From a virus: DNA of 31,883 nt. The notes beneath the pieces were generated by a model. It made no database searches. It was given only the letters and a program-made list of their open reading frames with translations, and was not told the DNA's origin. Location of the stretch: IMG/VR virus record IMGVR_UViG_3300024978_000002; one strand, written 5' to 3'. Shown in pieces: positions 222-17,212 of this stretch (position 1 is the stretch's first letter; every line of letters begins with the position of its first letter). Made by a program: the position numbers and the translations under genes.

Positions 222-3200
222 TTAGTCGTTGTTACGACTGAACGCCACACTCACCGGCAGCTGGTCCCGGCGTTGTTGCACCGGACGACTAGACGGTGAA
301 CGTGTCGTTGTTACATTGTCACTACTGGCAGGTGCAGGAGCCTGCGACGACGCCAGCTGTTTGATCAGATCACGGACCGCCGTATAGGTATCGGCCGTGT
401 TCTTGGCAATGGACTGTTGAGTCTCCAAGGACTTCTTGAGGATATCTCCCACCAACGCCATCTTACTCTGATCGTTCTTACTTTGCCATTGCGACTGAAC
501 TTCTGTCAGACGCGTTTCGGCATCCTTACGGGCTTTCTCCAACGCCGCGATCTGGGCGCGGGTGGTATCATCCGCCGTACTGGTTCGAGCAGCGACGTCT
601 AACGTCCGTACCGAATCAATGCTTGGTGCAGGCGTCGCTGTGGCGGTCGTCGGACCGGTCGTGGAGGGACTTAGTCCCCCATTAGCCATCATAGCGGCCG
701 AACCACCACCAGTTGCTAGGGAGTTTGTGGCAACGCCTGAGCCGTCCGGTGCCATATACGCCAGATTCTCGTCGGCTTGACTTGGTACGACAGGTGCAGG
801 CGATCCGTTGGTCGCTGGCATCGGTGCCGCACCAGCCGCCTTAGCGGCTGGTTGAACACCACCTTGCGTACCGTTGGCCGTCGTGGTGGTCGTGACCGGT
901 GGCGCGACGGTCTTGGCCGTTGGACTTCCCGGAGCCGCCGGCACGCTACCGCCACCGTAAGACGCCAGGATTTCATCCATGGACTTACCTTGGAACTTCT
1001 TCAGGTAGCCGTTGACGTAACTGCGACGCTGTTCCAGGTTCGTCAATCCGCCATTGATGAGTCGGGTAACACCCTCCAAATCACTGGGGTTGGCTTTACC
1101 TTTCACACGCGTCTTCCAGTAATGGATAGCTGAAAGAGCCGCCACACGAGGATCGGTTGCCACTAAATCGGGGTTATCCACCACATCAATGCCGGTATCT
1201 CGGGCAAAAGCCTTGTAGTTAGCCTTACCCGTCAACTGCATTAAACCCCGACCACGGTACTTGTAACCGTCACCAGTGACGGTGTTACCCATGCGGCCAT
1301 TATAGATGAAGTCAGCAAAGGCCACCGGTCCTTGCGCCAGAATCTGCTTTGCAAAATCAAGCGTTGGAAAACGATTTGGCCAAATACGACGAGCGACTTC
1401 AGGTCGGTAATTGAGGTTTTCAATCAGGTGAGCAAAGCTCCCTGATTCCTCAGCGACTTGACCCAGCAGCATCGCCAATTCCGTCGGATCGGTGATACCG
1501 GCTTTGATAGCTTCTTGGATTAATACACGTTCTCGGTCCTTCGCGCTACCGACGAGTTTAGGCTCTTTCGGAGCACCTTGTCCGAACATATAGCGGCTCT
1601 GAGCCGTTAATGCCTGGCCGGTGGCACCGAAACCACCGCGTATGTCGCCGCGCCCAAAGCGATCCACGGCCTCTCGACTATTGTCGATAGTGGCTTGGAC
1701 GCCCCCGGCGATACGCCGCCCGATATTCGATGCAGCACCCCCGATGCCGTCCACGGCTTTACCCAGCCAAGTGCGGTCGCGTTCGGTGCCTAAGAGAAAG
1801 TCTCGGGCTTTACGGGCCTGATCCTTCATCTTATCCATCATGCTCGATACCAAACCCTTGTCTTTACGTTTGTTGGCGTCACTACCCGGAGTCTTGTCTT
1901 CGTCGATCACTTTCTTATCTGCTGACGCCTTCAGCACCGCCAGTGAACCGGAGATCGTTTCGGAATCGCTGTTCAGCCGCTCACTAACACTCCACGGTGA
2001 ACGGGTCCAAAACCACGTCGACTTCCCATCGTCGTCCTTGGTATTCAGGACGCTTTGGGCGATCAACAGGAGCTTGTCGGCCTTCAGAGACTTTTCAGGC
2101 ATTTGCAGATCGGCAGTTTTGTCGATACTACGCACGGCCTTAACGTAAGCCAAACACACTGGCAAGAACCGATGTCCGTACCATCCCATGAAGCGTGCCC
2201 TGTCCTGGGGGGAGTTCGGTAGAAGCCCAAACAACCCACACACCGCCAGATACACCAGTTCGTCTGAGACGGGGAGGTGAGGCGTCCCATTGTCGGCAAT
2301 CTGGATCTTCTTAAAGACCAAGGCTTCCAAAGCCGCCAGGCACCGGACACGATCCTGATCTAAATCCGATAACCCATAAGCCCGAAAACGCAGCGCGGTG
2401 AGTGCGCTGATTTTCCCGAGTTTCGAAAGCGGAGACGCTAACAATGCATCGACGTTCTTCGTGTTCTTGATTTTCCCGGAGGTTGACAAGAAACTCGCGC
2501 CAGCATTTTGCTCTGCCTTTTGCATCGTCTCTTCGGTGGCTTTGAGTTTAGCGTCTTTCTCATCGGCTTTGTTGGTGAGAAAAGACATTGCTAAACCCGC
2601 ACCGGGGATCACTGACGCCACGGCACGTGCTCGGTTCCACCACTTATCGGCTTTACGTTCACTGTCGGTTTTGGTCGTCTCTTTCAACGCCAGGTTGTAA
2701 GCGTCTTCAATTTGACCGACATCCGTGACCGAAGGAGTACCTGGGAACGGACTGGCCGTGATGGCGTAGATATTTCGGTCAACTCCCCAAGCGGCCTTGA
2801 CAAGCTGCGCTTGTTTGTCCTGTTTGAGTTTCTCGTCCGCATCCAGAAGCGCCATGGTGGGTTCCAGCCCTTTGAGCGCCCCCACCCATTTCAGGAACAC
2901 CGGCTTAAAGCGCCGGTTGAACCAGACGATAAAAGCCGACCGTTCGTCTGACTTGTTGGAGAACCATCCGTCGTCTAGTCCCATCAATTTAAAGACGTCG
3001 GCCATCTTAAGCGCTTTACCGCCGGAGATAGATTTTTCAGAGAAGTCCAGACCACCGTTCTTTTCAATAACGTGATCCAGCAATGCTTCTTCCAAACCGA
3101 AGATCTTTTTGTTATTGCCGGCATCTCCCGGTGCCACGCCGTACTGAAGGTAACGGAAGCGGCGGATCGGAGTGAGTTTACCGTACTTGTATTGCTTGAA

Positions 3201-6200
3201 CCCGTAGTACGCCAACGCACCAGCGGCGGCTACAGCCGCACCGACAATCGCCAGAGGTACAAAGAGCGGGGCGCCGATGATACCGGCCGCAGCGGTACCG
3301 ATACCCGATAACACTGGTGCAGCCAGGGCACCTAGTGTCGGACCACCGAGTGCACCAGATACCATAGAAGCGGCACCGACATTACCAGCCACGTTGAGGA
3401 CTTTACCGGTGGTCGAATCTTCACCTAACCATTCGGAGGCTTTCGATCCACCGTAGCTTAAAGCGGCACCGGTGGCTAAACCACCCACGACACCGCCAAT
3501 AGAAGCGCCGCGTGGTTTAAACCGACCCAGTTTAGACAAGAAGCTAGCGCCTTTGGCCACTTTACTAGCTTTGGCAGCAGCGCCGGCGGCTTCTTCGACA
3601 CCTTCGACGGCACCCTTACCACGACGGAAGAGCCGTGCTAACCGACCTAGACGACCACGACCCCGAGGGAGTTTACCCTTACGGGCCTTCAGTCGCTGTT
3701 TGGCGGCTTTCTTCCGACGACGACGTTCACGCCAGCTCCCTATGGAGTCGGCCGTCATGGCGGCGTCACCGACATCATCTAAGACTGAACCGTCGTCTTC
3801 GTCATCTTCGTCATTCTCCTCTTCCTCGTGTTTCTTACCGAGTCCGAAAAGACCGCCCGCTTTCTTACCTAGCCAGCCAAGAGCACCACCGATACCCCAC
3901 TTTCGTTCTCGAGCAGCGATGGCTTCCCCGGTAGCCTCTTCCTTCTTTTTCTCCTCGCGAGCTTCAGCGGCTTCCTGCCAGCTACCCTTACGCGCCTTCT
4001 TAGGTGCGAGGCGTTCATCTAAGACTTTAAAAATACTCTGAAGGAGTTCGACTTGTTTGGCACCGTGCTTTTCAAAGGGGTTGAGTAACGCCCCTAGGAA
4101 CTTAAACGGCGCGCCAATCAAACCGCCACCAAGACCGAGCATCCCGCCGAAGAGTTTACCGTAGCCTTTCAGAGCGCCCTTGAACAAAGCGCCAGCACCC
4201 TTAACCAGGCCCACGGCAGCACCACCTACTGCACCGATTAAACGGGACAGCGGAGTACGTAGCGACATCCCCCACCGGTTGGACAACCCCGGGTTGGTGA
4301 TCTCCTCTTCGTACAGAACGACCTTGTCATCAGGCAGGGCTTTATCGCTTCCGCGTTGAAGTTCACGAATCTCCCCGTAGATGTCCTCGTAGGTTTTGAC
4401 TTCCCTACCAGTCTTTTTTGGACCTGCGTTGTAGTACTTACCTTGCTTCATCTTGGTAGCGTACAGACGTGGAGAACTCTCGCCCTTGACGTAAACGTCC
4501 ACTTGTTTGTTAGTGGCCCACTTTAGGGTGGATCCTAATCCCTTAAGACCAGCCGAAGCGATCTTAAAGGGTAAGGTAGCCAAACCGCCGTAAAAACTCA
4601 CCACGGCACTACCCAAACCCATAATGGACTTCTTAGCCAATCGGACCAAACCCGTCGCACCCTTGGAGTAAAGTCCTGCGTCAAAATCCGCTTGATCCAC
4701 CACGGTTTCACCCGTTTTGAGATCCACAACAGGACCGGTGACGTCACTCCAACGTTGGATCTTCTTTTTGGTGTTGACGTCCTGGTAATGGCCGAGTTTA
4801 AGTTTCTCCGCAGTCATGGCAGGCTTGCGTTTACCTTGGATATAGATATCCTTGATACCACGCACGAGGTTTCCAATGCGATATGCTGCACCTTGACCTA
4901 CAGCGCCAATACCATGGCCTACACCACTAACAGCCGAACCGATGCCACCGAACACTTTACCCGTCCACCATTTCGTCCCACGGCCCACCGCCTTGGTAAT
5001 GCTCCAACCAGCTTTGATACCGCCGATAGCGATGGAGTCTAAGAACCCCTTCGGATAATGACCACCACCACCGGGGCCCTGGGCCGCCAAGATCTGGGCG
5101 ATGGCTTTCAGGAGTTCCACTTGCTCAGAGTTCAGACGTACGAGCTCACTGTCATTAGCGGCAGGCTGGTCAGGGTTGAACATGTTCGAGACGCCGTCAC
5201 CACCCACCGCACTGGCCGTGGGGCCGTTTTGCGGAGGTAAAGGGGGAGGTGTACTACCACCAGACGCTACTGATGCTGCGTTTGCACGCATCTTTGAAAC
5301 CGCTTCGGTGAGTTTGTTCCCCTTGCTGTCCTTAAGTGTGGGGATATCCGACGCAGTAATGACCGTGCGTCCGTCTTCGTCAATGACTGGACCGGCAATA
5401 TCTTCAGGTTTGTAGATAGGACGTTGTGTCAAGGCATCTCGGTACTTGCCGAGTTTGAGCTTGACCGCAGAAAGCAGAACTTCACCGCGGCCGTTCAGAA
5501 CTTCACGAACGTCATCGGCGACTTTCTGTCCGCGCGTGCGTGCTTGGTTACCAAGGTCTTGAGCGAAGTCGGACGCTTTCTTAGTAGCGGAGCGTAAGTT
5601 GAAGGTAATGGACTTACCCTTACCGTCCACCAACCCCATACTCAGTTGATCGACATCAATGACAATGTCACCGGACACCAAGTCCTTTACAGGACCACGG
5701 ATATCGGTCCACTTCTTGATGACCGCGCCGGTAACTGCATCCACGTAGCCACCAGCCTTGAGCCTACCGGCAGACAACACGGCCTTCGTTCCGCCTTGCA
5801 CGTAAAGGTCCTTCGCACTTTGGACAATCCCCGCTACCTTGGCGTTAAGTTCTGCGCGGGTACGTTCACCGGCTGAAGTCTTCTTCTGTTTGATATCGCC
5901 GACATCGGCGTTTTCTACCAGATCAAGAATCTTACTGATGTCCAGATGATCTTTACCATCCTTCGTGTAGATCAGTCCTTGAGACTTGAAGAGCTCACGT
6001 TGACCGGCTGACCGGTAGGCACTCGCGCCACCGATAGGTGCCGCACCGCCAAAGTCGATCCCTTGAAGTGTTTCAGCACGCTTCGACATCCAATCAAAAT
6101 CGAGTTTGCCTTCTGCCGTCCGACCTTGCGTTTGGAAGATTTGTCCGAGTTCGAGCTTCGCCTTACCGTCCAGTTCCGGGGTGTTAGACGCTGGGTCACT

Positions 6201-7799
6201 ATACCGACGTGGATCAAACGGTTCGGCATTGCCGGAGTCCAACAACAACTGCCTAATGAAAGCCTTTCGGGTGCTGTCGCTAATGGGCCGTTTACCAATC
6301 ACGTCATCGACGAAGTCGTTGATACTCTGCTTAATGCGAGCACGTGAGTCTTTGGTGAAGGACGCATTTAAGGCGTCATTACCAGCGGTTTTGACCGTAC
6401 TGAACTCACGGCGGTCGTGGTTATAAACCTGCCGCTGTGCTTTGGGGTCAAACACCATAGCCGTGTTGTGTTCAATGCGCGACAAGAATCCTGGGATAAT
6501 CTCAATGATCGACCGTCGGGTCAAGGCATCAAAGGTCGCTGGCTTGTCCAGTTGACTAATGCCGTTTTGACCGACCACCGTATTCATCTTGTACTGACCC
6601 AGGGTCGACTTGAACATGTCCTCAAGCGAACCTAGCAAACCGCCGCGCGTTGTTGCTGACTTCGCGTAGCGATTCAGGAGCTGGGGGAGTGACCCGATGC
6701 CGTACTCCAGGACACCACCTTTCTCCGCCAGCTTGGGGAAGAGCTTCGTCAGCCAAGGAGCTGCTTTCTTACCCAGGAACTGACCGCCTTTCTCCGCTGC
6801 GGTTTGCCCGAGCATCTGAAAGAGCATCTCTTGGAAAGGTATGGGGGAGCCGTCCGCTCCGATCATATCCAGAGCGCTAGACGCCCCACCCATCACGTCT
6901 TTAAGTTGCTCACCAGCACGCTTACCTAGTCCACCGATATAGTTGCCAGCCCACTTACCCGCAGTGTTTTGCAGGTTATTCATGAGTTTGTTACGGAACA
7001 CTTGCTTCGCTGAGTGACGTAGCGTCTGTTTCGCAATGTCCGGCATCGCGGTGTTGTTCACCAAAGCATCGAACTGAGCTTGCTGACGTTTGGCAGTCTC
7101 GGCCTGTAAACGCAAACTATCGCGCGCTACTAAGTAGTGGCGTGTTTGCAGTTCCAGGGAACGACGCTGGTAACGGTTTGTCACGTCATCCTGGTAATTC
7201 ACCAGGCGCATGATTCCCTGTTGCATGACGTTGAGTGAACGCACCTGCTGTTTGGACAGTCCAGTCGACTGCGCATGTTGAAGGGCACGCTCGAACTTAT
7301 TCTCCGCATTCTGACGGGCATCGGCCTCCATCTGAACGCCGAAGACCTCCGCCATCTGTCGGCGAATATCTTCCTCTTCCGGATTACCCTTAGGCCCGTT
7401 TCCCGAAGACGGTTGAGAGAACGCCTCAAGCTTATCAGCAACACCTTTAGGTAGGTATTTCCTGGCTTTAGGAAGGTTACGTTGGGTTAGATTTTTGAGG
7501 ACAGGGATCGAGGGCCGGATCTCGTCCTGGGCGATATGGTATAGCTCCTGGGCTTGACGCGACACTTGGTCGTGTAAGTCAAACGCTTTGCCGTACCCCT
7601 TGGGCAACATGGCCTTAGCGATGTTACGCAGTGTCGAAGGTGTCTTCAGGGCATCCGTCGCCCCTTGCGTAAAATTGACGGCGACCTTTTGGATCACGCC
7701 GTGCTTACTCTTTTGCTTGGACGAGCCCGAATAGGGATCATCGAAGTCGTAATCGAGCGACTCATCCCATTCGAAATCGTCTAGCTTCTTGGTAGGCAT
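222..7799 (-). CDS. Giant tail/tape-measure-like protein with C-terminal GH19 peptidoglycan hydrolase domain (phiKZ gp181-like), ~2525 aa
   Basis: Start placed at ATG 7799 (MPTKKLDD) with GGAG SD at 7807-7810. Gly/Ala-rich and hydrophobic segments, four internal repeats, GH19 signatures (MLLGQVAEESG, ENLNY, GDGYKYRGRGLMQLTGKANY, INGGLTNLEQR). Divergent from the vRNAP beta' gene as in phiKZ. Confidence 0.85.
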   Translation of the reverse strand: MPTKKLDDFEWDESLDYDFDDPYSGSSKQKSKHGVIQKVAVNFTQGATDALKTPSTLRNIAKAMLPKGYGKAFDLHDQVSRQAQELYHIAQDEIRPSIPVLKNLTQRNLPKARKYLPKGVADKLEAFSQPSSGNGPKGNPEEEDIRRQMAEVFGVQMEADARQNAENKFERALQHAQSTGLSKQQVRSLNVMQQGIMRLVNYQDDVTNRYQRRSLELQTRHYLVARDSLRLQAETAKRQQAQFDALVNNTAMPDIAKQTLRHSAKQVFRNKLMNNLQNTAGKWAGNYIGGLGKRAGEQLKDVMGGASSALDMIGADGSPIPFQEMLFQMLGQTAAEKGGQFLGKKAAPWLTKLFPKLAEKGGVLEYGIGSLPQLLNRYAKSATTRGGLLGSLEDMFKSTLGQYKMNTVVGQNGISQLDKPATFDALTRRSIIEIIPGFLSRIEHNTAMVFDPKAQRQVYNHDRREFSTVKTAGNDALNASFTKDSRARIKQSINDFVDDVIGKRPISDSTRKAFIRQLLLDSGNAEPFDPRRYSDPASNTPELDGKAKLELGQIFQTQGRTAEGKLDFDWMSKRAETLQGIDFGGAAPIGGASAYRSAGQRELFKSQGLIYTKDGKDHLDISKILDLVENADVGDIKQKKTSAGERTRAELNAKVAGIVQSAKDLYVQGGTKAVLSAGRLKAGGYVDAVTGAVIKKWTDIRGPVKDLVSGDIVIDVDQLSMGLVDGKGKSITFNLRSATKKASDFAQDLGNQARTRGQKVADDVREVLNGRGEVLLSAVKLKLGKYRDALTQRPIYKPEDIAGPVIDEDGRTVITASDIPTLKDSKGNKLTEAVSKMRANAASVASGGSTPPPLPPQNGPTASAVGGDGVSNMFNPDQPAANDSELVRLNSEQVELLKAIAQILAAQGPGGGGHYPKGFLDSIAIGGIKAGWSITKAVGRGTKWWTGKVFGGIGSAVSGVGHGIGAVGQGAAYRIGNLVRGIKDIYIQGKRKPAMTAEKLKLGHYQDVNTKKKIQRWSDVTGPVVDLKTGETVVDQADFDAGLYSKGATGLVRLAKKSIMGLGSAVVSFYGGLATLPFKIASAGLKGLGSTLKWATNKQVDVYVKGESSPRLYATKMKQGKYYNAGPKKTGREVKTYEDIYGEIRELQRGSDKALPDDKVVLYEEEITNPGLSNRWGMSLRTPLSRLIGAVGGAAVGLVKGAGALFKGALKGYGKLFGGMLGLGGGLIGAPFKFLGALLNPFEKHGAKQVELLQSIFKVLDERLAPKKARKGSWQEAAEAREEKKKEEATGEAIAARERKWGIGGALGWLGKKAGGLFGLGKKHEEEENDEDDEDDGSVLDDVGDAAMTADSIGSWRERRRRKKAAKQRLKARKGKLPRGRGRLGRLARLFRRGKGAVEGVEEAAGAAAKASKVAKGASFLSKLGRFKPRGASIGGVVGGLATGAALSYGGSKASEWLGEDSTTGKVLNVAGNVGAASMVSGALGGPTLGALAAPVLSGIGTAAAGIIGAPLFVPLAIVGAAVAAAGALAYYGFKQYKYGKLTPIRRFRYLQYGVAPGDAGNNKKIFGLEEALLDHVIEKNGGLDFSEKSISGGKALKMADVFKLMGLDDGWFSNKSDERSAFIVWFNRRFKPVFLKWVGALKGLEPTMALLDADEKLKQDKQAQLVKAAWGVDRNIYAITASPFPGTPSVTDVGQIEDAYNLALKETTKTDSERKADKWWNRARAVASVIPGAGLAMSFLTNKADEKDAKLKATEETMQKAEQNAGASFLSTSGKIKNTKNVDALLASPLSKLGKISALTALRFRAYGLSDLDQDRVRCLAALEALVFKKIQIADNGTPHLPVSDELVYLAVCGLFGLLPNSPQDRARFMGWYGHRFLPVCLAYVKAVRSIDKTADLQMPEKSLKADKLLLIAQSVLNTKDDDGKSTWFWTRSPWSVSERLNSDSETISGSLAVLKASADKKVIDEDKTPGSDANKRKDKGLVSSMMDKMKDQARKARDFLLGTERDRTWLGKAVDGIGGAASNIGRRIAGGVQATIDNSREAVDRFGRGDIRGGFGATGQALTAQSRYMFGQGAPKEPKLVGSAKDRERVLIQEAIKAGITDPTELAMLLGQVAEESGSFAHLIENLNYRPEVARRIWPNRFPTLDFAKQILAQGPVAFADFIYNGRMGNTVTGDGYKYRGRGLMQLTGKANYKAFARDTGIDVVDNPDLVATDPRVAALSAIHYWKTRVKGKANPSDLEGVTRLINGGLTNLEQRRSYVNGYLKKFQGKSMDEILASYGGGSVPAAPGSPTAKTVAPPVTTTTTANGTQGGVQPAAKAAGAAPMPATNGSPAPVVPSQADENLAYMAPDGSGVATNSLATGGGSAAMMANGGLSPSTTGPTTATATPAPSIDSVRTLDVAARTSTADDTTRAQIAALEKARKDAETRLTEVQSQWQSKNDQSKMALVGDILKKSLETQQSIAKNTADTYTAVRDLIKQLASSQAPAPASSDNVTTTRSPSSRPVQQRRDQLPVSVAFSRNND
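4270..5813 (-). repeat. Four degenerate ~60-70 aa internal repeats in the giant tail protein
   Basis: Consensus D(L/I/V)YVxG...L.A.KLK.G.Y.D..T...I....DI.GPV.D..G..V.......GL...G at approx 5615-5813, 5320-5507, 4660-4854 and 4270-4502. Confidence 0.75.
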
Positions 7800-7870
7800 T
7801 ACTTGTCTCCAGGCCTGCACGTAATAAGTAGGGCCTAGGGGGCCCATCATAAGTTAAGGAACCCCGTCCC

Positions 7871-9334
7871 ATGTCCAACTTGGATCTACCGTTCAACGTC
7901 GAGATCTACGAACCCACGCCAGACATGCTGCGTTTGCTGAAACCCGTGACCAGCACGGACTATTACGAGAATACGAAGGGTGACTTAGATGAAGACGGTC
8001 TTTTTTCAATTAGCATTTTCGGTCGCATTGGCGAGGACGCTCGAGACAAACGCTTTTCATTTATTGACATTAAGACCGAAATATTTCATCCCGTCATTTA
8101 TCAACGCCTCGTACGGCTGAAGAAACTGTACGAAGGGATCCTCACGAGCGAGCGGTACGCTAAGTGGGATCCTGAACTGCACGATTTCGTCGCAGCCAAT
8201 GAACTGGAAGGTGAGACGGGTTTTGCGTTCTTTGTCAATCACTGGCGCGATATTCATTTCACCCGTAACAAATCCGACGTCCGTGAGATGCGTGCTGACG
8301 TGATAGAGAAATACCGCGATCGTGCCCTGACCAGCAAGATCCTTGTTATCCCTGCAGGACTGCGCGATCTTGAGGTGGATGAAGACGGTCGCACCAACGT
8401 TCATGCGATCAACGCGCTCTACCGCAAACTCTTGGCGTTCTCTCGGGTGTTACCCGACCATGACGGTGTCAAGAACGATCCAACGCATAACCGTGCGCGA
8501 CAGCTCCTGCAGCGGTGTTTCAACGACATTTACGAGATGATCGAAAAGATGTTGGCGGGTAAGGAAGGGTTCGTCCAAGCCAAGTGGGGTGCGCGTAATG
8601 TGCAGAACTCGACGCGAAACGTAATCACGGCATTGGATACGTCCGCCGCCGAACTCGGTGCCATCAATGCGCCTAAATTCACCGACACGATCGTGGGCTT
8701 GTGGCAACTTTCCAAAGCGGTCCTACCGATTACTATCCACGCCTTACGTACAGGTTACTTGAGTCAGGCGTTTGCTTTCGGTGATCGCACCGCTCGGTTG
8801 GTCGACAAGGATACGTTGGAAGCGGAAATCGTCGACGTTACGGCGGAGTCTTACGACAAGTGGAACACCGTCGAAGGGCTTGAGAAAGTCGTCGCGAGTT
8901 ACAAAGAACTCACGCTCCGTAGTCGTCCCGTGGAGATTGACGGGCGGTATCTGGCGTTGATCTACGCACCACCTGGGAAAGCGGTATTCCGAGTGTTCTC
9001 CGATATCCGTGACCTTCCGCGTGAACTTAACCGACAACACGTACGACCGATCAACCTGATGGAGTTGTTGTATCTGTCCGGTTATCATGTCTGGAACCAA
9101 CAAGTTGGTACCGTGACGCGCTATCCTGTCACGGAAATTGGTAGTTGTTATCCCACTAGCGTCTACGTCAAAACGACCATCGTGGGTGAGGTCCGGAAGG
9201 AATTAGGGGAGGACTGGCGACCCATCGCCCAGGACGATTCCTATACCGCACCAGAGTTTCCTACTTATAACCCCCTAGCTTACCAAGACAGCCTGGTCGT
9301 ACCGGGCGTGCGTCTGGCGGGACTGGGAGCGGAT
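7871..9334 (+). CDS. Virion RNA polymerase beta' subunit (phiKZ gp180-like), exon 1
   Basis: Beta' motifs DGLFSISIFG, VIPAGLRD, GKEGFVQAKWGARNV, TRYPV. Ends RLAGLGAD immediately before an in-frame TAA, i.e. halfway through the catalytic GADFDGD motif. Confidence 0.92.
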
Positions 9335-10743
9335 TAACTGTTAAAGACGTATCCTCATCACGGAACCTCCTAATCTTTTGTATCTCTGATTACAGGGCCA
9401 AAGTGATGAGTTCAATGAAGAGTTGTGAAAGCGTCAGGCGTCTCCCGTTCATCAGACAAGAAATCAATGTCACAATCGACGGCGACTTAACCGATGCATC
9501 TAGACAACCGCTTTCACTAGAACAGTTCAACCAAATAACTGGTCTTGACGTCGACGATCTCAATGTAGTCGTCGCAGTCACGTTCCAGAAAGTTAATGTG
9601 GCGCCTTTTTTCTGGAAGTTTCTCAAAGCACTTAAGACAGTCGAAGATGTTTCGACTCCTGAGTCTTTAACCATTGGGTTGAAGGTACCTGTCGAATCCG
9701 TAGAGTATCCTGGATTCTTCATCATTCCCTACTTTGGTAATTACCTCATAACCCCAGATGGTTGGTTGATCAAAAAATCAACCGGACAAACTATCCAGGC
9801 TTCGCAAGGTCCACTTGGCTATTACACCTTCAGAATGACTGATGATTCGGGTCATTGTCAAAACCAACTCAGACATCGTATTCTCTGCTACGCTTTCAAA
9901 TCCTACCCAGCCGATGTATCGGACCTCGATGTAAACCACATCGACGGTGTTCCTGGGAATGACGGACTTGAAAATTTAGAGTGGACGACACGATCAGGAA
10001 ATATGTTACACGCATACGACCACGGGCTCCGTTCTGACAATAAACCAGTTCAAGTTAGGGACATAGAGGCGAAGAGGACTCTTATTTTCGGCAGTTATTC
10101 TGCCGCTGCGAGATTCCTCGGTGTCACTGAGACGACGATATCAAATCGAGTTAAATCACTCGGTTATCGTTCCTTTAGTGGATATCAATTTCGTTCTCAC
10201 CCTAGTGACGAACCCTGGCCAGAGGTTGGTGAAGAAGGTGGCAAATATTTGGTAGAATTTCCTGACGGTAACAGTAAGAAATGTGGCTGTGACGAAGCCG
10301 CTAGACTGGCTGGAACTACAAGGACAAGTTTACTGCGACTCCTCCGAGAAGGAAGAACGCAGGGAACCACATTGAACAAAGTGATTCGACTTTAACAAAA
10401 GTTCCCTCAATCTTAAACGGTTGAGTGATTTCTCTCTAATTGACTGGAAACCCCTGAGAGCTCTTCCTACCAAGCTGCTCGTGGAAACACGATAGTGGCT
10501 GCGCTAATCACGCAGGTACGGTAACAAAGGAAGAGATTGGGCAATCAGCAGCGAAGCCTCTTCCTAAAGAGGAACGTTCAACGACTATCCGGTAGCGCGG
10601 AGTAGGGTCAAGTGACCCGAAATGGGAGACACCTGACGGCCTGACAAGGTACAAGGTGAAGATATAGTCTGGTCATCCAGGGAAAACCTGGAGTCGCGGA
10701 TAGTGCCGCAGGTAGAGTTTAACGAACTCTATTGAACATAACG
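9335..10743 (+). mobile_element. Group I intron (1409 nt) in vRNAP beta', carrying an HNH endonuclease
   Basis: Exon ends in U (9334), intron ends in G (10743), and joining gives GAT|TTC GAT GGC GAT = DFDGD. Core elements: P AATTGACTGGAAA (10438-10450), Q AATCAGCAGC (10543-10552), R GTTCAACGACTA (10576-10587), S AAGATATAGTCT (10659-10670). P7 GACTA/TAGTC, P3 TCTCTC/GGGAGA, P9 hairpins at about 10676-10731. Confidence 0.93.
9403..10395 (+). CDS. Intron-encoded HNH homing endonuclease (NUMOD4-like + HNH + C-terminal HTH repeats; I-HmuI-like architecture)
   Basis: IPYFGNYLITPDG (NUMOD4-like), HRILCYAF...VNHIDGVPGNDGLENLEWTTRSGNMLHA (HNH), FGSYSAAARFLGVTETTISNR and CDEAARLAGTTRTSLLRLL (HTH-like). 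Visibly more AT-rich than the flanking exons. Start codon uncertain. Confidence 0.9.
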   Translation: MMSSMKSCESVRRLPFIRQEINVTIDGDLTDASRQPLSLEQFNQITGLDVDDLNVVVAVTFQKVNVAPFFWKFLKALKTVEDVSTPESLTIGLKVPVESVEYPGFFIIPYFGNYLITPDGWLIKKSTGQTIQASQGPLGYYTFRMTDDSGHCQNQLRHRILCYAFKSYPADVSDLDVNHIDGVPGNDGLENLEWTTRSGNMLHAYDHGLRSDNKPVQVRDIEAKRTLIFGSYSAAARFLGVTETTISNRVKSLGYRSFSGYQFRSHPSDEPWPEVGEEGGKYLVEFPDGNSKKCGCDEAARLAGTTRTSLLRLLREGRTQGTTLNKVIRL

Positions 10744-10920
10744 TTCGATGGCGATACGGCAAGTTTCATCGCCGTCTATACGGACGCAGGGGACGACATC
10801 AAGAAGTATCTCAACAGTAAAGAAGCTTTCGTGGATCCCATTGGTGGCCTACGTACGAGTACCGGTGTGCTTACCACGGATCTGTTTCTCCGCAGCTTCA
10901 CGGGCAATCCGGAAGACTGA
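10744..10920 (+). CDS. Virion RNA polymerase beta' subunit, exon 2 (FDGDTASF...; spliced product 546 aa)
   Basis: 58 codons starting FDGDT that complete the Mg-binding DFDGD loop in frame with exon 1. Confidence 0.9.
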   Translation, partial: FDGDTASFIAVYTDAGDDIKKYLNSKEAFVDPIGGLRTSTGVLTTDLFLRSFTGNPED

Positions 10921-10938
10921 ACCCTTAAGGAATTCTCC

Positions 10939-12210
10939 ATGAAGCGTGACTTGATTGAAGAAGAACTCCATGTCACTTTGGAGTCTGTTGAACAGTTAAA
11001 GAACCAGCAAGAATCTGTACTGGTCGAACAACCGTCCCTGGAAGGTTATCAAGAAGCAGATTACCTTGAGTTACGCAAACTTCAGGAACTCACAGAAACC
11101 GTATCGCAAGAAGCTATCGGTAAACAAGAGGTCAAAGACGTTTTGTCAACCATCGGTCGGGCAGGTATTGCGGCAGGTGTAGGCTTTCTAAAAGCTGTCG
11201 CGACGATCCATCGGTGGATTGATTCCACCCACTTGGTACGTGTACGACAACTGCGTCAACAGGCTGAGTCGATCGACAAGGAACACGGAGAACACGACAA
11301 GGGCCGGATGGAACGCGCTCGACTGGCTGTATCGTTATCGGTCGGTGGGGAGTTTCCTGCCGATTTCGACACCTATGCCAAAGGCATGATCGAGTTCTCT
11401 CAACGCGCCACGAGTGGTCCGATAGGTCAGCTGGCAGCGATGAACCATGAGATCGCCAAGCGGTTAGAAGCCAAACGTTGGATGGGGTTGGATGCTTTCA
11501 ACAACGAAGTGAGTGAACTGACACGGATCATCGGTAGTCAGAAACTACCGATGGAACTGTACCCACTGAAAGATTTCCAGCGTTTATTCCCGGGGAATCG
11601 TAGTATGTTCTCAGCGGTCAAACCGCGCATACCCCGCCGTGCGCCGCCACTACCTAACGCCGCGGCGCGTAAGGTCTACGAGGCTGTTACTACCACTACG
11701 ATTGGAATTAACCGCCGCCCTGATGTCGTATCAGGTAAAGCCGATCCGATCTTGCACATTTTGACCGTGCCTGAAGCCCTGGAACTCATTCGTTCGGCGG
11801 AGAGCATTCTGAAGGAAGCTCAGCGTGTCAACCAAGTCGCTCGTTCCTTCGGACACGACAAAGTTCCATCCACGCTGTCCATGATGCTCTCGGGTCTCTA
11901 CCACGGTGTCAAGCGCCAGCTTGACGATATGCGCCCCATCCAGTCTACCGGGTTTGACGTGATCGAAGGTGTGCACCAGGGTGGTGCGACGGTACGACAT
12001 TCCAACGTGATTCAAAATCGACCAGAGCGAGATGCTAAGGACGAAGCTGAAAATGATCAGCGTTCTTTACTCGGCATTTGGGTGAGTCGTTATCTCAAGA
12101 TGTCTCTGGTCGACCACCACGCGCAGTGTCAATCGTTAATGCTACTTTTGATTGGTGTGGCTCGGGCGTATCTAGATTACGCCGAAGAAAGTCTCAACTA
12201 CTACTCCTGA
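10939..12210 (+). CDS. Hypothetical protein, probable protease-matured internal head protein
   Basis: 423 aa with AAGGA SD. Acidic N-terminal region with S-x-E motifs (SVE, SLE, SQE) typical of phiKZ gp175 cleavage sites. Confidence 0.6.
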   Translation: MKRDLIEEELHVTLESVEQLKNQQESVLVEQPSLEGYQEADYLELRKLQELTETVSQEAIGKQEVKDVLSTIGRAGIAAGVGFLKAVATIHRWIDSTHLVRVRQLRQQAESIDKEHGEHDKGRMERARLAVSLSVGGEFPADFDTYAKGMIEFSQRATSGPIGQLAAMNHEIAKRLEAKRWMGLDAFNNEVSELTRIIGSQKLPMELYPLKDFQRLFPGNRSMFSAVKPRIPRRAPPLPNAAARKVYEAVTTTTIGINRRPDVVSGKADPILHILTVPEALELIRSAESILKEAQRVNQVARSFGHDKVPSTLSMMLSGLYHGVKRQLDDMRPIQSTGFDVIEGVHQGGATVRHSNVIQNRPERDAKDEAENDQRSLLGIWVSRYLKMSLVDHHAQCQSLMLLLIGVARAYLDYAEESLNYYS

Positions 12211-12229
12211 ATCACCACGTCTGTATAGG

Positions 12230-12262
12230 ACCGGGAGTACGCCATGGCGTACTCCCGGTTTT
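12230..12262 (+). terminator. Rho-independent terminator-like palindrome
   Basis: Perfect 30-bp palindrome ACCGGGAGTACGCCATGGCGTACTCCCGGT (12230-12259) running into TTT, just after the stop at 12210. Confidence 0.7.
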
Positions 12263-12285
12263 CCCCTGTCTTGAAGGCCTACGGA

Positions 12286-15200
12286 ATGATGCCCGATAAA
12301 ACCTCTTTGCAATGGTCGCTGCTCCCGACCACCCCGGAGCGCTTTCCGCCGGCTCAGGCGGAACATACCCCCGAACCGCTTGAAGACGCGTTACTGACGT
12401 TTACCGGTGAAGGGACGGGTTCGCAAGTCAGCCTGGAAGGCATGCCTCTCTACACGCCGTATTTCCGACGTTATGGTGTCCTGCGCGCGGTTCAGCTCGC
12501 GGTACCTCGAATCAATACGTTGGAGACGCTTGAACTCCCGAAGGAAACCATCCTCCATTACATGGCGGAGGACGAAACCGAGATGGGCCTCTCGCAATCA
12601 GCGCCGATCCTGCACAACAATACCCGCGTGGTGTTCACTGAACACCAGTTGATTCTGGCAGACCAATTGGGTAATCCACGGAAACTCCCGTTGCCGGCCA
12701 TGTCCATGATTCGCGATTACCATCGGCAGAACCGTCGGACACGTAATTTGCTGCGGCCGGAAACAGCGATGCGGGACGTGAACACGATCGTCGTAGAGAA
12801 CTATGCGATCTTAAGTCACTTGTACCGTTATCCCACGAACTATTTTCGGGGTTACTACAAGTGGTGGAATCTCCAAGCAACACTTTGGGAGAACGCAGGG
12901 CGGTTGGGTCGTGAGTATCCGCGTAGGAACCAGTTTCTCCAGTGTCGCCTTCCGACGCTACTCCCGACGCTAGCGCAATTGCGGCGTGGTGAGAACGGGA
13001 TGACACGTAATTTACTGGCGGCGTTTACACAATCGGAGTCTCTGTTTATTCTAGAGATCTGGAAGTGGTTGGGTCTGAAACGCGAGACATCGGTGTTGTC
13101 CAAAGCAGCCCCGGAAGATCTGGCGCAGATGAACCTGATCTTTATCGAGAAAGACCGGTGGTTGGTGTTGAACCTGGGGCTTCTGGATAAATGGCGCAAG
13201 CGTCCCGAACCCGAAGCGGGTTGGGAAGACCACGCTGGCGTACTGGACACACTGATTCTCCAGAAGCGTTTCTTGCGTCTACTGATGACATTGCTCGAAG
13301 TGCGCACGGTGGTGGACTCCGAAGAAGCCGCTGACATTCCGGTGGAAGACGACGGTAGTGAACACGCGGAGAGTGCGGTCAGTACGAAAGCGCAAACTGC
13401 ACCACCGGCGGCAGCGATCGACACCATTGCCAAGCAAACACCGACGCCGACACAACCTGACTCTGTCCAACCTGAGTCGACTGTTGTCGTTACGGCGAAG
13501 GCTGAACCGGTCAAACTGACGATCCCTACGGAAAACGGTAAAACCACTAAGGTTAAGCTCACTGCGAATCTCAACCTGGACAAGCTCCCCGATGCACTCG
13601 TGGAAGAAACACCTGAGAACATCCGGTTGATCGACCAAGCGATCACGAAAGACCTCGAAGCACTCGACCATCTGATGGCTAAGTACGAGACCGAAGTCTC
13701 TGAAGGTCAAGAAGTCGCACCCGCCAGTACCGTGGCCGGTGACGTTACCACGATGCTCAAGTACAAACCGGAGGAGCGTTCACTCCAAAGTAGTGTCATG
13801 CATCGCGTGGACCAACAAGCCGATGCGGGACTGATCTCTGGTGCGGAGTACAGGCGCATGCAGGCGCTCTCTGCAGCGTTCCAGCGACTACCCAATCCGT
13901 TCGGTCAGGGTGTGCTGTCGGATATGACAGTAATCCAACCCGAAGAGCTCGCACTGGCTACTGAGACGATTGCACCAGACATGGGGCTCGTCCCGGACAA
14001 GACGATGCTGAAAAGTGTCGTGGATGAATTTGACACGAAATATCTTGACAAGGTCTACCGAAAAGACCTAGTGCGGATGGTGTTAGGCCTTCAGCACGCA
14101 GGTATTGCGGTCACTGGGTTCTCGATGGATGAGTACCAAGACGCTCTGAACCACTACGAGAAGTACACGTTGCAGTTAACCCCCGTCGTGGGTAAAGTCT
14201 CAACGGTGTACTTCAAACTACCGAAGATCGAAGACGATGGTACGTACTCTGACAATGGGTCAAAATATCGCCTGCGTAAACAGCGAATTGACGTACCCTT
14301 GCGTAAACTATCGCCATCACGGGTAGCTCTCACGAGTTACTACGGCAAAGTGTTTGTGAACCGATCGGAAAAGCAGGTAAACAACTACGCCGGGTGGTTG
14401 ACGAATCAAGTCGCCGCTACCGCGATTGACGACAGTAATGACCGTATCACGCAAGCTTTGCTAGCGGATGTCTCCGACAGTGAACTTAAAGTTCCTCGGT
14501 TGTACGCGATTATGTCGTCACGGTTCCGTTCCTTCCGGGTGTCCTACGACAAAGCTCAATACGACTTCTTCTTCGATTACCATGCTCGTGAGAATTATTT
14601 CGGTAAGGACAAAGTCCAAGCCGTTGAGAAAAACGGTCTAGTCGTGGTCGGTCGTAAGAACGGGCAGTTACTGGTGATGGACGACTCCGACTCTCTCTAC
14701 GAAGTGCAGGGACTAGAGCTGATCAATACCGGTACGACGCTGGAAGAGATTCTTGGCATCGTTGGTAAAGCTCCCGTAGAGATGGCGGAAATCCGCATTT
14801 TCGGTAAGCAAATTCCGGTAGGGCTGTTTCTGGCTTACGAACTAGGTTTGACTGAACTCTTTCGTTTGATGGGTGTGAAACCCCGACGCGTACCGACAGG
14901 TAATCGTTCCTACGTCAACGACGACGAACTCGTCTTGCGGTTTGAAGATGAACTCTGGATCTTCCCACGCGATCGTTCAGCCCGTACGATGATCCTATCA
15001 GGACTGACAGCGTTTGAGTCCGTGACGCGGAATTACTCATCGCATCTGTTCGATCGCAAGGATATCTATTTCAACGTCTTGGAACAAGCGCGGATCGGCG
15101 TACGTTACCTGCGGGAAATGGATTTGATGCGCGACCTGTTCATTGATCCGATCACCGAGGACATCTTGAAAGAGATGGGTGAACCGATCGACTTCATCGC

Positions 15201-15743
15201 ACTGACCATTCGAGCATGTCAGTTACTGGAATCGGACTGGTCGCCGGCCGAGACGGATATGGCATACATGCGTATCAAGGGATACGAACGCATGGCCGGT
15301 GCGGTCTACAGTGAACTAGTGAAAGCCGTTCGACTACAGCGTGCTCGGGGTAGTGCGGCGAATGCGCCCATTGATTTACATCCCGATGCGGTATGGATTG
15401 GCATACAACTCGATCCGGTGAAGAAAGCCGTGGAGGAGTCCAATCCGGTCCACAACGTCCGTGAACGGGAAGAGGTCACGTACAGTGGTGTGGGTGGCCG
15501 TAGTAGTCGGTCCATGGTGGGTCGGACGCGCGTGTTTCATCCGAACGACATGGGTGTGATCTCGGAATCTACCAAAGACTCCGCTGATGTAGCCATCACC
15601 ACATTCATGCCGGCCAACCCTACGCTAACAAGTGTACGTGGTATTGCCCGGCGTTTTGATCCCAAGAAAGACGGCATTACCTCTGTCATGTCCACCCCGG
15701 CACTTCTGGCTCCAGGAGCCGACAGAGACGATCCTAAACGCGT
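12286..15743 (+). CDS. Virion RNA polymerase beta subunit (phiKZ gp178-like), exon 1
   Basis: Beta-like motifs (NGSKYRLRKQRIDVP, VALTSYYGK, RIKGYERMAG, SGVGGRS, DMGVISESTKDSADVA, LLAPGADRDDPKRV). Start placed at ATG 12286/12289 behind GAAGG, because the 12244 ATG lies inside the terminator hairpin. Possible propeptide ending at SLE|G. Confidence 0.9.
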
Positions 15744-16104
15744 ATGAAAGTGCGCCTTTTGGCTAACCCAAAAGAAAACCTCTTTAACTGCTGGGAACTC
15801 TCTTTGAGACAATCAGCAGCCAAACACCTAAGGGCAAGATAAACTCCCCCAATTTCTACATCGCGTCGTGAGACGCTACTTAGGTGAAGGTTCAACGACC
15901 ATCGAAACCACTCCGTTCAGGAGACAAGGGAGTAGAGTAGGGCGCAAGCGCGCCTCCGAAAGGAACAACCGGACTACGGGGCCGGGAATACGAAATGGGA
16001 GGCTACTGTTTTCACAGTAGGTGATATGGTCTGCTCCTCTAGGTGACTAGGGGCGGGTGTCTTTAGCACACCGTCGTGGTGTAGCGAACCACGAGGACAA
16101 AAGG
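15744..16104 (+). mobile_element. ORF-less group I intron (361 nt) in vRNAP beta
   Basis: P1 CGCGU|AUGAAA-GUGCG with a U.G pair at the splice site; P10 ATGAAA (15744-15749) complements TTTCAT (16108-16113); terminal G at 16104. P AACTGCTGGGAA (15786), Q AATCAGCAGC (15811), R GTTCAACGACCA (15890), S GTGATATGGTCT (16021); P7 GACCA/TGGTC. Splicing gives CGC GT|A AAT TTC = R-V-N-F in frame. Confidence 0.92.
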
Positions 16105-17212
16105 AAATTTCATCCCCATTCAGCAGAGTTCAACGACTTTTGCGAAGGGGTACAAACCCACACCGCTCCGGACAGGCTATGAGCATGTCCTGGCACATCG
16201 GGTGGATGAATCATTTGCGGTCTCAGCGAAGAAAGCCGGTAAGGTCACGTCACTTTCTCCGAAAGGTCTGGTGGTGACTTACGAAGACGGAACGACCAAA
16301 GCAGTCTCTTTAGGGCGGCGTTTCGGTAAGGCGGCTGGGTTAGTCCTACCCCACGAGATGGCGACGGAACTGAAAGAAGGACAGTCCTTTAAGGCGGGTG
16401 ATATACTCTCCTACAACGCGCTGTATTTCCAACCTGACATTCTGACTCCGGGTCAGGTTGTGTGGAAAGCTGGTGTGTTGGTGACCACTGCCATTTTAGA
16501 AAGTCCCGATACACTGGAGGACTCTTCCGTGATTTCTGCGGAGACTGCGAAACTACTTGAGACGCAAATCACGTATGTACGAGACATCGTGGTGGGGTTC
16601 AAACAAACCATCCACGACCTCGTTCAAGAAGGGGAGAGCGTAGAGATCGACAGTATTCTATGTATGATCGAAGATGCCGTTACAGCCGAGAATCATCTCT
16701 TTGACGACCAATCGGTTGATCTTCTGAGACTCTTGTCTGCGAACGCTCCACGAGCCAAACATAAGGGTATAGTCGAGAAAGTCGAGGTGTACTACCACGG
16801 CGACCTCGACGACATGTCCCCTTCGTTAGCGGAGATTGCCAACGCCAGTGATCGTGAACGTAAGCGAGCGGCGCGGGCGTTGCAGGCCAAAGCCTTGACG
16901 GGTAAAGTGGATGCATCCACTCGAATCCAATCCAAACCCTTGACAGCCGATAACCTTTTAATCCGCGTGTACATCACGTCGGATGTCGCCGCTTCGGCAG
17001 GTGATAAGGGAGTCTTCGCCAACCAAATGAAATCCGTCTTCGGACGGGTGATGTCTGGTGTCAACGAAACGGCTTCAGGTATCCCTCTGGGAGCGATCTT
17101 CAGTTACACGTCGATCTCGAACAGAATTGTCAGAAGTCCTGAACTGATTGGTGTTAGTTCAACGCTTCTGAAGTTGATCTCCCAACGCGTTGTCAAGGCG
17201 TACAAAGGTTAA
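16105..17212 (+). CDS. Virion RNA polymerase beta subunit, exon 2 (spliced product ~1521 aa)
   Basis: The frame of ORF 16202 is open back to 16106 (NFIPIQQSSTTFAKGYKPTPLRTGYEHVLAHR). Contains beta motifs TLEDSSVIS and GDKGVFANQMKSV. Confidence 0.9.

Follow-up and report, generated by a model that had tools for sequence, protein, structure and literature searches.

In the stretch of 31,883 nucleotides from the IMG/VR virus record IMGVR_UViG_3300024978_000002 analysed here (the window), two genes of the virion RNA polymerase (vRNAP) are most probably each cut at a catalytic motif by a self-splicing group I intron; intron 1, in the gene for the beta' N-terminal subunit, would be a mobile element and intron 2, in the gene for the beta subunit, a passenger. 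Ribozyme signatures, intron boundaries, a conserved and intact nuclease gene, recurrence of the insertion sites among relatives and covariation of guide and exon were established for this locus. The window is part of a 50-kb IMG/VR fragment, and the phage is an uncultivated, phiKZ-like chimallivirus whose closest cultured relatives infect Xanthomonas.

Both introns matched the Rfam model RF00028 over its entire length (model positions 1-253 of 253) and above its gathering score of 50 bits: the core of intron 1 at 10384-10693 with 67.5 bits (E = 2.9e-15) and intron 2 at 15734-16053 with 54.6 bits (E = 2.1e-11). The whole record yields these two intron matches and a single match to the nuclease family HNH_3. 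Exon 1 of the beta' gene ends in GGA GCG GAT, with U9334 at position -1, intron 1 ends in CATAACG and exon 2 starts with TTC GAT GGC GAT; the junction lies between GAD and FDGD in the metal-binding loop. In the intronless Xanthomonas jumbo phage Xoo-sp14 and in many IMG/VR loci GAD-FDGD is uninterrupted, and removal of intron 1 restores a colinear frame. The pattern A-D-x-D-G-D is invariant in an alignment of the beta' junction region (A1), and the profile of its nine sequences recognized in the PDB only RNA polymerase beta'/Rpo1N chains, at the NADFDGD loop, with weak E values of 0.05-1; a single-sequence PDB search with beta' returned nothing. As is typical of group I boundaries, U9334 pairs with G10401 in a U-G wobble and the terminal base of the intron is G10743.

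Intron 1 has no local P1. Its 8-bp P1-extension helix was equalled in 19 of 2000 shuffles, and extension helices of other sequence are present at the same position in the divergent contigs L065, L067 and L069, which together with the window makes four different sequences. In all compared introns at the beta' site GUC or GUU follows directly after the extension helix. The ORF-less introns of the Xanthomonas jumbo phages RTH11 and LucasX (ORF, open reading frame) form the same P1-extension hairpin, in which the terminal loop is short (6 nt in RTH11). The long-range P1 extension and these short-loop versions together indicate that the nuclease gene is an insertion in the P1-extension loop, and therefore that the 5' splice site pairs with a guide about 1.07 kb downstream. 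As regards the Asp codon preceding the site (9332-9334 in the window), GAT was found in every intron-bearing allele examined, while distinct intronless alleles have GAC in 19 cases and GAT in one (the phiKZ-like KTN4); GAT in the intron-bearing alleles fits a requirement for U at -1.

For intron 2, exon 1 of the beta gene ends in CCT AAA CGC GT (U15743), the intron ends in AAAAGG and exon 2 starts with A AAT TTC. A first-pass annotation had placed an ORF-less intron after DDPKRV: the site and the lack of an ORF (none of at least 60 aa was present) hold, but the cut falls inside the Val codon (GT/A) and not after it. Removal of intron 2 gives DDPKRVNF, identical to intronless RTH11. The equivalence of this motif to the bacterial HDDANR, likewise proposed there, was confirmed, since beta DRDDPKRV aligns with EHDDANRA of Thermus aquaticus (E = 6.4e-6). 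U15743 pairs with G15750 and the terminal base is G16104, again as in other group I introns. P1 is formed by CGCGU/GUGCG, and the fold is stabler than that of shuffled sequence (z = -3.35). P7 (GACCA/UGGUC) is off consensus on both strands together and is shared with the closest relative, L067; the P9 hairpins of the window and L067 differ by UA-to-GC double compensatory changes. Moreover, at this position, hereafter the V-site, the guide covaries with the exon across five lineages: exon/guide pairs are CGCGU/GUGCG in the window, GAGU/GCUC in L038 and L067, GAAU/GUUC in L069 and GCGU/GCGC in L048. Searches with blastn against phages found only short core matches to intron 2, covering at most 32%, and no close relative in GenBank. 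The scores, the boundaries and the peptides restored on removal confirm the earlier proposal of two group I introns at catalytic motifs, with the coordinates given there; the result is well above chance.

Two further observations concern introns of this kind. The P9 segment GGGCGGGTGTC..TAGCACACCG (16050-16078) is found again in group I introns from further chimallivirus contigs (L071-L076), among them a beta' intron of L071 and a second intron of the 309,208-bp record L072. In L048 (5563-5892) and L049, independent metagenome contigs with the same coordinates and identities, no in-frame placement of the V-site intron has both U at -1 and a terminal G: it either ends in CUCGCA/A, with a terminal A, or starts after C.

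The identity of the interrupted genes was derived from PHROGs and PDB searches, used in place of Pfam, where the polymerase pieces had no matches. ORF 7871-9337 matched PHROG 2986 (RNA polymerase subunit; E = 2.3e-178) at profile positions 6-484 of 539; the remaining positions, about 55, would be accounted for by the 58 codons of beta' exon 2. ORF 12244-15747 matched phrog_3148 at profile positions 3-1054 (1082 bits) and ORF 16202-17212 matched it at 1088-1422; the splice at 16105 adds back 32 codons 5' of the called exon 2 start at 16202. The gene order is that of KTN4 (phiKZ species), namely a giant peptidoglycan hydrolase, a 550-aa 'beta/beta'-like virion-associated protein' and a 1451-aa protein, and other phage records label homologues of both polymerase genes as vRNAP subunits. 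The 1451-aa gene is a homologue of phiKZ gp178, the subject of the study by Birkholz et al. (PMC11620839). This synteny, the labels and the gp178 homology identify both genes as virion polymerase genes. The earlier statement that both vRNAP subunit genes are interrupted was right in that two genes are split. We take the phiKZ-like vRNAP to have more than two subunit genes (phiKZ gp80, gp149, gp178 and gp180), with the others encoded elsewhere, and hence the split genes are two of several. At the nucleotide level, megablast of the region against GenBank phages gave no match and relatives were detected only as proteins: amino acid identity of RTH11 and LucasX to the window is 71% in beta' and 76-80% at the end of beta exon 1, that of Xoo-sp14 about 53%.

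The nuclease encoded in intron 1 scored 25.6 bits against Pfam HNH_3 (PF13392; cut-off 24.8). Its ATG start at 9406 is preferred to GTG 9403, which is also possible, because an identical 329-aa protein is on record. About 65 metagenome protein clusters match it over its full length, the first 100 residues included, at 42-62% identity, and H158, N178, H179, N191 and H203 are invariant across 22 homologues, with the catalytic His and Asn intact. It matched I-HmuI (1u3e) in a phmmer search, the alignment covering the HNH motif, and a Foldseek search with its AlphaFold (AF2) model (predicted local distance difference test score 84.5) returned 1u3e as the sole significant match, with E = 1.3e-9 and 171 columns aligned out of a 174-aa chain. 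The predicted fold is I-HmuI-like, with a nuclease domain and extended DNA-binding modules. Cultured-phage matches are limited to the core, namely PhiPA3 gp210, with 34.5% identity over residues 99-272, and phiKZ gp179 with 30.8%; no cultured-phage homologue covered at least 80% of the protein, and most alignments begin near residue 92-105. The earlier claim that intron 1 splits GAD/FDGD and encodes an HNH nuclease is therefore well founded, the enzyme being of the I-HmuI type, intact and homologous to gp210. It would nick the intronless beta' allele site-specifically and promote homing, for which the constant association of the family with this one intron site is indirect support: the homologues in L065, L067 and L069 each lie directly after a beta' exon 1. 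Their identities to the window nuclease (59, 52 and 48%) are slightly higher than those of the respective beta' exons 1 (54, 47 and 45%).

The N-terminal domain of the nuclease (residues 1-105, positions 9406-9720), which most homologues from cultured phages lack, was, when modelled alone, closest to I-HmuI residues 1-95 (VIA-align); the match to this N-terminal half had Z 5.7 and a root-mean-square deviation of 3.7 Å over 80 residues, the next match having Z 3.2. On this modest score, the domain may have arisen by duplication of the N-terminal half of the nuclease itself, followed by degeneration. In L011, a beta'-intron ORF of 208 aa (1187-1813) has in common with the window nuclease the N-terminal region and a NUMOD4-like motif, at 24% identity over 82 aa, and has no Pfam HNH match. 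Going by these sequence features it looks like a decayed endonuclease gene, in line with a homing cycle.

Table 1. Features of the polymerase locus (positions in the window) and occupancy of the intron sites; a slash marks the intron position, and designations such as L065 refer to loci and phage records compared.
Feature	Positions	Strand	Remarks
vRNAP beta' N-terminal subunit (phiKZ gp180-like), exon 1	7871-9334	+	488 codons, ends in LAGLGAD
Group I intron 1	9335-10743	+	1409 nt; in-frame TAA first, G10743 last
P1-extension helix, 5' strand UGUUAAAG	9339-9346	+	Pairs with 10390-10397
HNH homing endonuclease (predicted)	9406-10395	+	329 aa; I-HmuI-like core and conserved N-terminal domain of about 100 aa
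P1-extension helix, 3' strand CUUUAACA	10390-10397	+	Overlaps HNH stop codon 10393-10395
Internal guide sequence GUUCCCUC	10401-10408	+	Pairs with exon 9327-9334 (GAGCGGAU) at 7 of 8 positions, including U9334-G10401 wobble
beta' exon 2	10744-10920	+	58 codons and stop; FDGDTASF...NPED, stop
423-aa gene between the polymerase genes, outside the introns	10939-12210	+	Conserved; in RTH11 and LucasX, not in Xoo-sp14 and KTN4
vRNAP beta subunit (phiKZ gp178-like), exon 1	12244-15743	+	Ends in GADRDDPKR and GT of Val codon
Group I intron 2	15744-16104	+	361 nt, no ORF; TGA 15745-15747 in frame; last base G16104
beta exon 2	16105-17212	+	A finishes Val codon, then NFIPIQQSSTTFAK...
Site beta' D/FDGD			Window, RTH11, LucasX, L007, L011, L034, L048/49, L065, L067; apparently also L038, L071
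Site beta DD/, with nuclease gene			L008/20, L022, L030, L065, Haymo, C-ZP2022, PhiPA3
Site beta DD/, without ORF			L026, L038, L039/40, BUCT660
Site beta V, 11 nt 3' of DD, always without ORF			Window, L038, L048/49, L067/68, L069/70

The distribution of the introns was followed in 53 IMG/VR loci, which were found with beta exon 2 alone and collapse to 44 lineages. An insertion was present at the beta junction in 8 of 43 assessable lineages and at the beta' junction in 4 of 17, and most of these insertions were confirmed by Rfam; such a patchy distribution is as expected for mobile introns. Insertions recur at three sites (Table 1), of which the DD-site lies directly after two conserved Asp of beta. 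The layout of the window, an armed beta' intron with an empty V-site intron, is repeated in L067/68 and L069/70, and in the cultured phages FishSpeaker, MIZ-Pa99 and C-ZP2022 the annotated beta' gene is truncated and followed by an HNH gene, and beta is split. The two-intron arrangement is thus not unusual and recurs in metagenomes and cultured phages. In L038, both beta sites are filled and a micro-exon of 11 nt, CCAAAACGAGT (5552-5562), lies between them.

That contig (IMGVR_UViG_3300042566_001512) has five Rfam group I introns in about 6.5 kb around the vRNAP genes (600-7100); beta' and beta have two each, and the fifth lies farther downstream. Breaks of beta' near D/F seem to lie after FDG in Aeromonas phage PS1 (L081) and after NDGD in FishSpeaker (L080); these two beta' genes gave one Rfam match only (L080, 3591-3955).

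The mechanism is the usual one of phage group I introns: one intron of the pair has an intact homing nuclease and the other is empty. We propose that intron 1 is a complete mobile element, a ribozyme whose extended P1 hairpin carries in its terminal loop the gene for a nicking HNH endonuclease of the I-HmuI type. In a co-infection, the nuclease would nick a relative's beta' allele that has no intron, at or close to the DNA that encodes DFDGD, and repair off the intron-bearing genome would copy intron 1 in (homing); where repair fails, the rival would lose an essential virion gene, an interference as shown for PhiPA3 gp210. Intron 2 would be the nuclease-free member of a lineage at one exact position in beta, 11 nt 3' of the PhiPA3-type site. 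It is most likely passed on vertically as a passenger, unable to spread on its own, and may persist because its imprecise loss would be lethal; as a side effect it would split the DNA that a DD-site nuclease must bind. The simplest account of it is a passenger left from a homing cycle, or moved in trans by another nuclease. Packaging of a functional polymerase would need both introns spliced from the mRNA, so that the active vRNAP would depend on two splicing events, as had been supposed before. Splicing itself, the specificity of nicking, homing or interference, and protection of whatever kind are inferred.

Several findings weigh against this reading. The divergence of the nuclease tracks that of its host gene, and long vertical descent fits this as well as active homing does. 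All 16 contigs with the identical nuclease carry both introns, and no recent presence/absence polymorphism was seen. The core of the beta'-site intron of RTH11 and LucasX is only weakly similar to that of the window (77 vs 567 summed bits), which implies that the history at this site was not simple. Intron 2 exceeds the Rfam threshold by just 4.6 bits. As to the relationships between the ribozymes, an all-against-all blastn comparison of 20 of them gave no clean site-specific clades.

Alternatively, intron 2 might be kept because it splits the recognition site of gp210-type DD-site nucleases and so gives immunity, which is physically plausible and which we consider unlikely to be the actual reason. 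The first-pass annotation, which offered this idea, would have dropped it had no relative carried a nuclease for the beta site; armed DD-site introns were found in seven lineages, among them L008/L020, which with 71% and 66% amino acid identity in beta are as close as the RTH11 group, and further L022, L030, L065, Haymo, C-ZP2022 and PhiPA3. I-HmuI nicks exon 2 at 3 nt 3' of the insertion in both intron-plus and intron-minus alleles, which implies recognition in the downstream exon (PMC3428280), and in the window the sequence from +12 is intron and not exon. A V-site intron occurs in none of the seven armed DD-site lineages, an observation compatible with immunity but uninformative, because fewer than one co-occurrence is expected at the observed frequencies. 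Since L038 is filled at both beta sites, one occupied site does not exclude the other. Moreover, an intron of any kind abolishes the site to which its own lineage homes; shielding would then come as a by-product, and nothing shows selection for it. A wider version, in which the two catalytic motifs of the chimallivirus virion polymerase are a standing battleground, with the beta' nuclease preserved intact through long vertical descent, no less conserved than the polymerase, because it wins co-infections, and the V-site intron kept as an immunity allele, is likewise improbable. If true, it would turn a nuclease-free 'selfish' intron into an anti-homing defence that breaks the gp210-type binding site 11 nt upstream.

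Spreading of intron 2 in trans has a small chance of being correct, be it through a nearby nick by a DD-site HNH nuclease or a free-standing nuclease (such as phiKZ gp179), or through co-conversion with intron 1. For the T4 nrdB intron, which is without an endonuclease of its own, homing in trans through MobE is on record (PMC2790892), and a nick at the DD-site would be 11 nt away. The five V-site lineages, all without ORF, are scattered over divergent phages and all carry a beta' intron too. This co-occurrence may, however, reflect intron-rich lineages (five introns in L038, three in L048) and is partly a product of how the loci were found, and the 50-kb record holds one HNH_3 match and no DD-site intron. 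Co-conversion with intron 1, by which intron 2 had been suggested to hitch-hike, is unlikely because an intronless recipient has about 5.0 kb between the two sites, compared with tracts of at most about 2 kb in T4 (PMC2790892).

That the splicing efficiency of both introns times or limits production of the virion polymerase is very improbable: both introns do lie in late, virion-packaged genes, and condition-dependent group I splicing is known in phages, as mentioned in PMC10914365, but the closest relatives have the same gene order without intron 2 or without both introns, no conserved requirement is evident, and conservation of homing sites accounts for the insertion sites. There is next to no chance that inteins, frameshifted pseudogenes or assembly artefacts explain the separate ORFs annotated by gene callers, given full-length covariance-model matches, an identical structure in 16 independent contigs and the same sites split in cultured phages. 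Inteins in particular were rejected, since TAA 9335-9337 and TGA 15745-15747 stand in frame right after the first exons.

With regard to the surroundings, region 7871-17212 comprises three genes on the + strand and adjoins a 2542-aa tail/lysin gene on the - strand. For this neighbour (222-7850), identical contigs list a GH19 domain (PF00182) in their gene tables, while its counterpart in L069 has Peptidase_M23 in place of GH19; the lytic module of the tail protein seems to have been swapped between lineages. No Pfam or PHROG match was obtained for the 423-aa gene between the polymerase genes; in L065, the gene at its position matches PF12699 (phiKZ_IP, phiKZ internal head protein). The spliced beta protein has 1535 aa, about 85-95 aa more than its relatives (1439-1463 aa), and its translation has, around residues ~355-440 (13300-13560), a low-complexity stretch rich in Ala, Pro, Thr and Gln.

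The window adds a well-defined further case to the picture opened by the PhiPA3 study, in which the outcome of a co-infection between jumbo phages may hinge on mobile introns in their virion polymerase genes. Two elements are new: the DFDGD site of beta' has a widespread nuclease family of its own, with an extra N-terminal domain and so far known from metagenomes only, and a second, always ORF-less intron lineage lies 11 nt from the site of the published PhiPA3 weapon. This closeness of the V-site lineage to the gp210 site makes the immunity question directly testable, and cultured phages with the same layout exist (FishSpeaker, MIZ-Pa99, RTH11 and LucasX). For annotation, it follows that the vRNAP genes of such phages are routinely miscalled as fragments.

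Among known systems, Bacillus phage AR9/PBS1 likewise has group I introns in the multisubunit RNA polymerase genes of a jumbo phage; short stretches match the core of intron 2, the similarity being limited to 23% of the intron and the phage group being distant. There are also cultured jumbo phages with a split vRNAP, namely Shewanella FishSpeaker, Pseudomonas MIZ-Pa99, Vibrio C-ZP2022, Aeromonas PS1, Serratia Haymo, BUCT660, and Xanthomonas RTH11 and LucasX, which have the same gene order and in which beta', beta or both are fragmented, an HNH gene being annotated between the fragments in some of them; in RTH11 and LucasX the beta' site is identical to that of the window. Their records differ in that separate coding sequences and not introns are annotated, several apparently at neighbouring motif positions, and the Rfam threshold was reached in only two of six loci scanned. 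The T4 nrdB intron with its defunct I-TevIII, mobilised by MobE, is a precedent for a persisting immobile intron and for armed and unarmed elements as close neighbours (PMC2790892); it differs from the window, where intron 2 has no nuclease gene closer than about 2 kb. I-HmuI shares the nuclease fold and the setting, in which phage group I introns interrupt a conserved active-site motif and have competitors in related phages. Its host gene and target differ and, with 174 aa, it has neither the additional N-terminal domain of the window nuclease nor its second helix-turn-helix module at the C terminus.

A further parallel is PhiPA3. Its gp210 intron lies in vRNAP beta directly after two conserved Asp, and its nuclease, a homologue of that of the window, has been shown to nick and to interfere (PMC11620839); the position of the intron is confirmed by the PhiPA3 sequence (GAT GAT, intron, ATG AAA CGC GTC). 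As a precedent for the window it is therefore real with respect to the nuclease, but an intron in beta after DD is not the analogue of intron 1, for which it had been taken: the armed intron of the window is in beta' at D/FDGD, the one in beta is ORF-less and follows the gp210 insertion point at a distance of 11 nt, and the gp210-type position (in beta directly after two Asp, the position of E. coli RpoB D675) is not occupied by an intron. The window nuclease further differs from gp210 by its conserved N-terminal domain of about 100 aa. In both phages, nevertheless, a chimallivirus vRNAP gene (gp211/209 in PhiPA3) is interrupted at a catalytic motif by a group I intron with a gene for an I-HmuI-like HNH nickase, and in both this gene starts soon after the 5' splice site, with the ribozyme core 3' of it.

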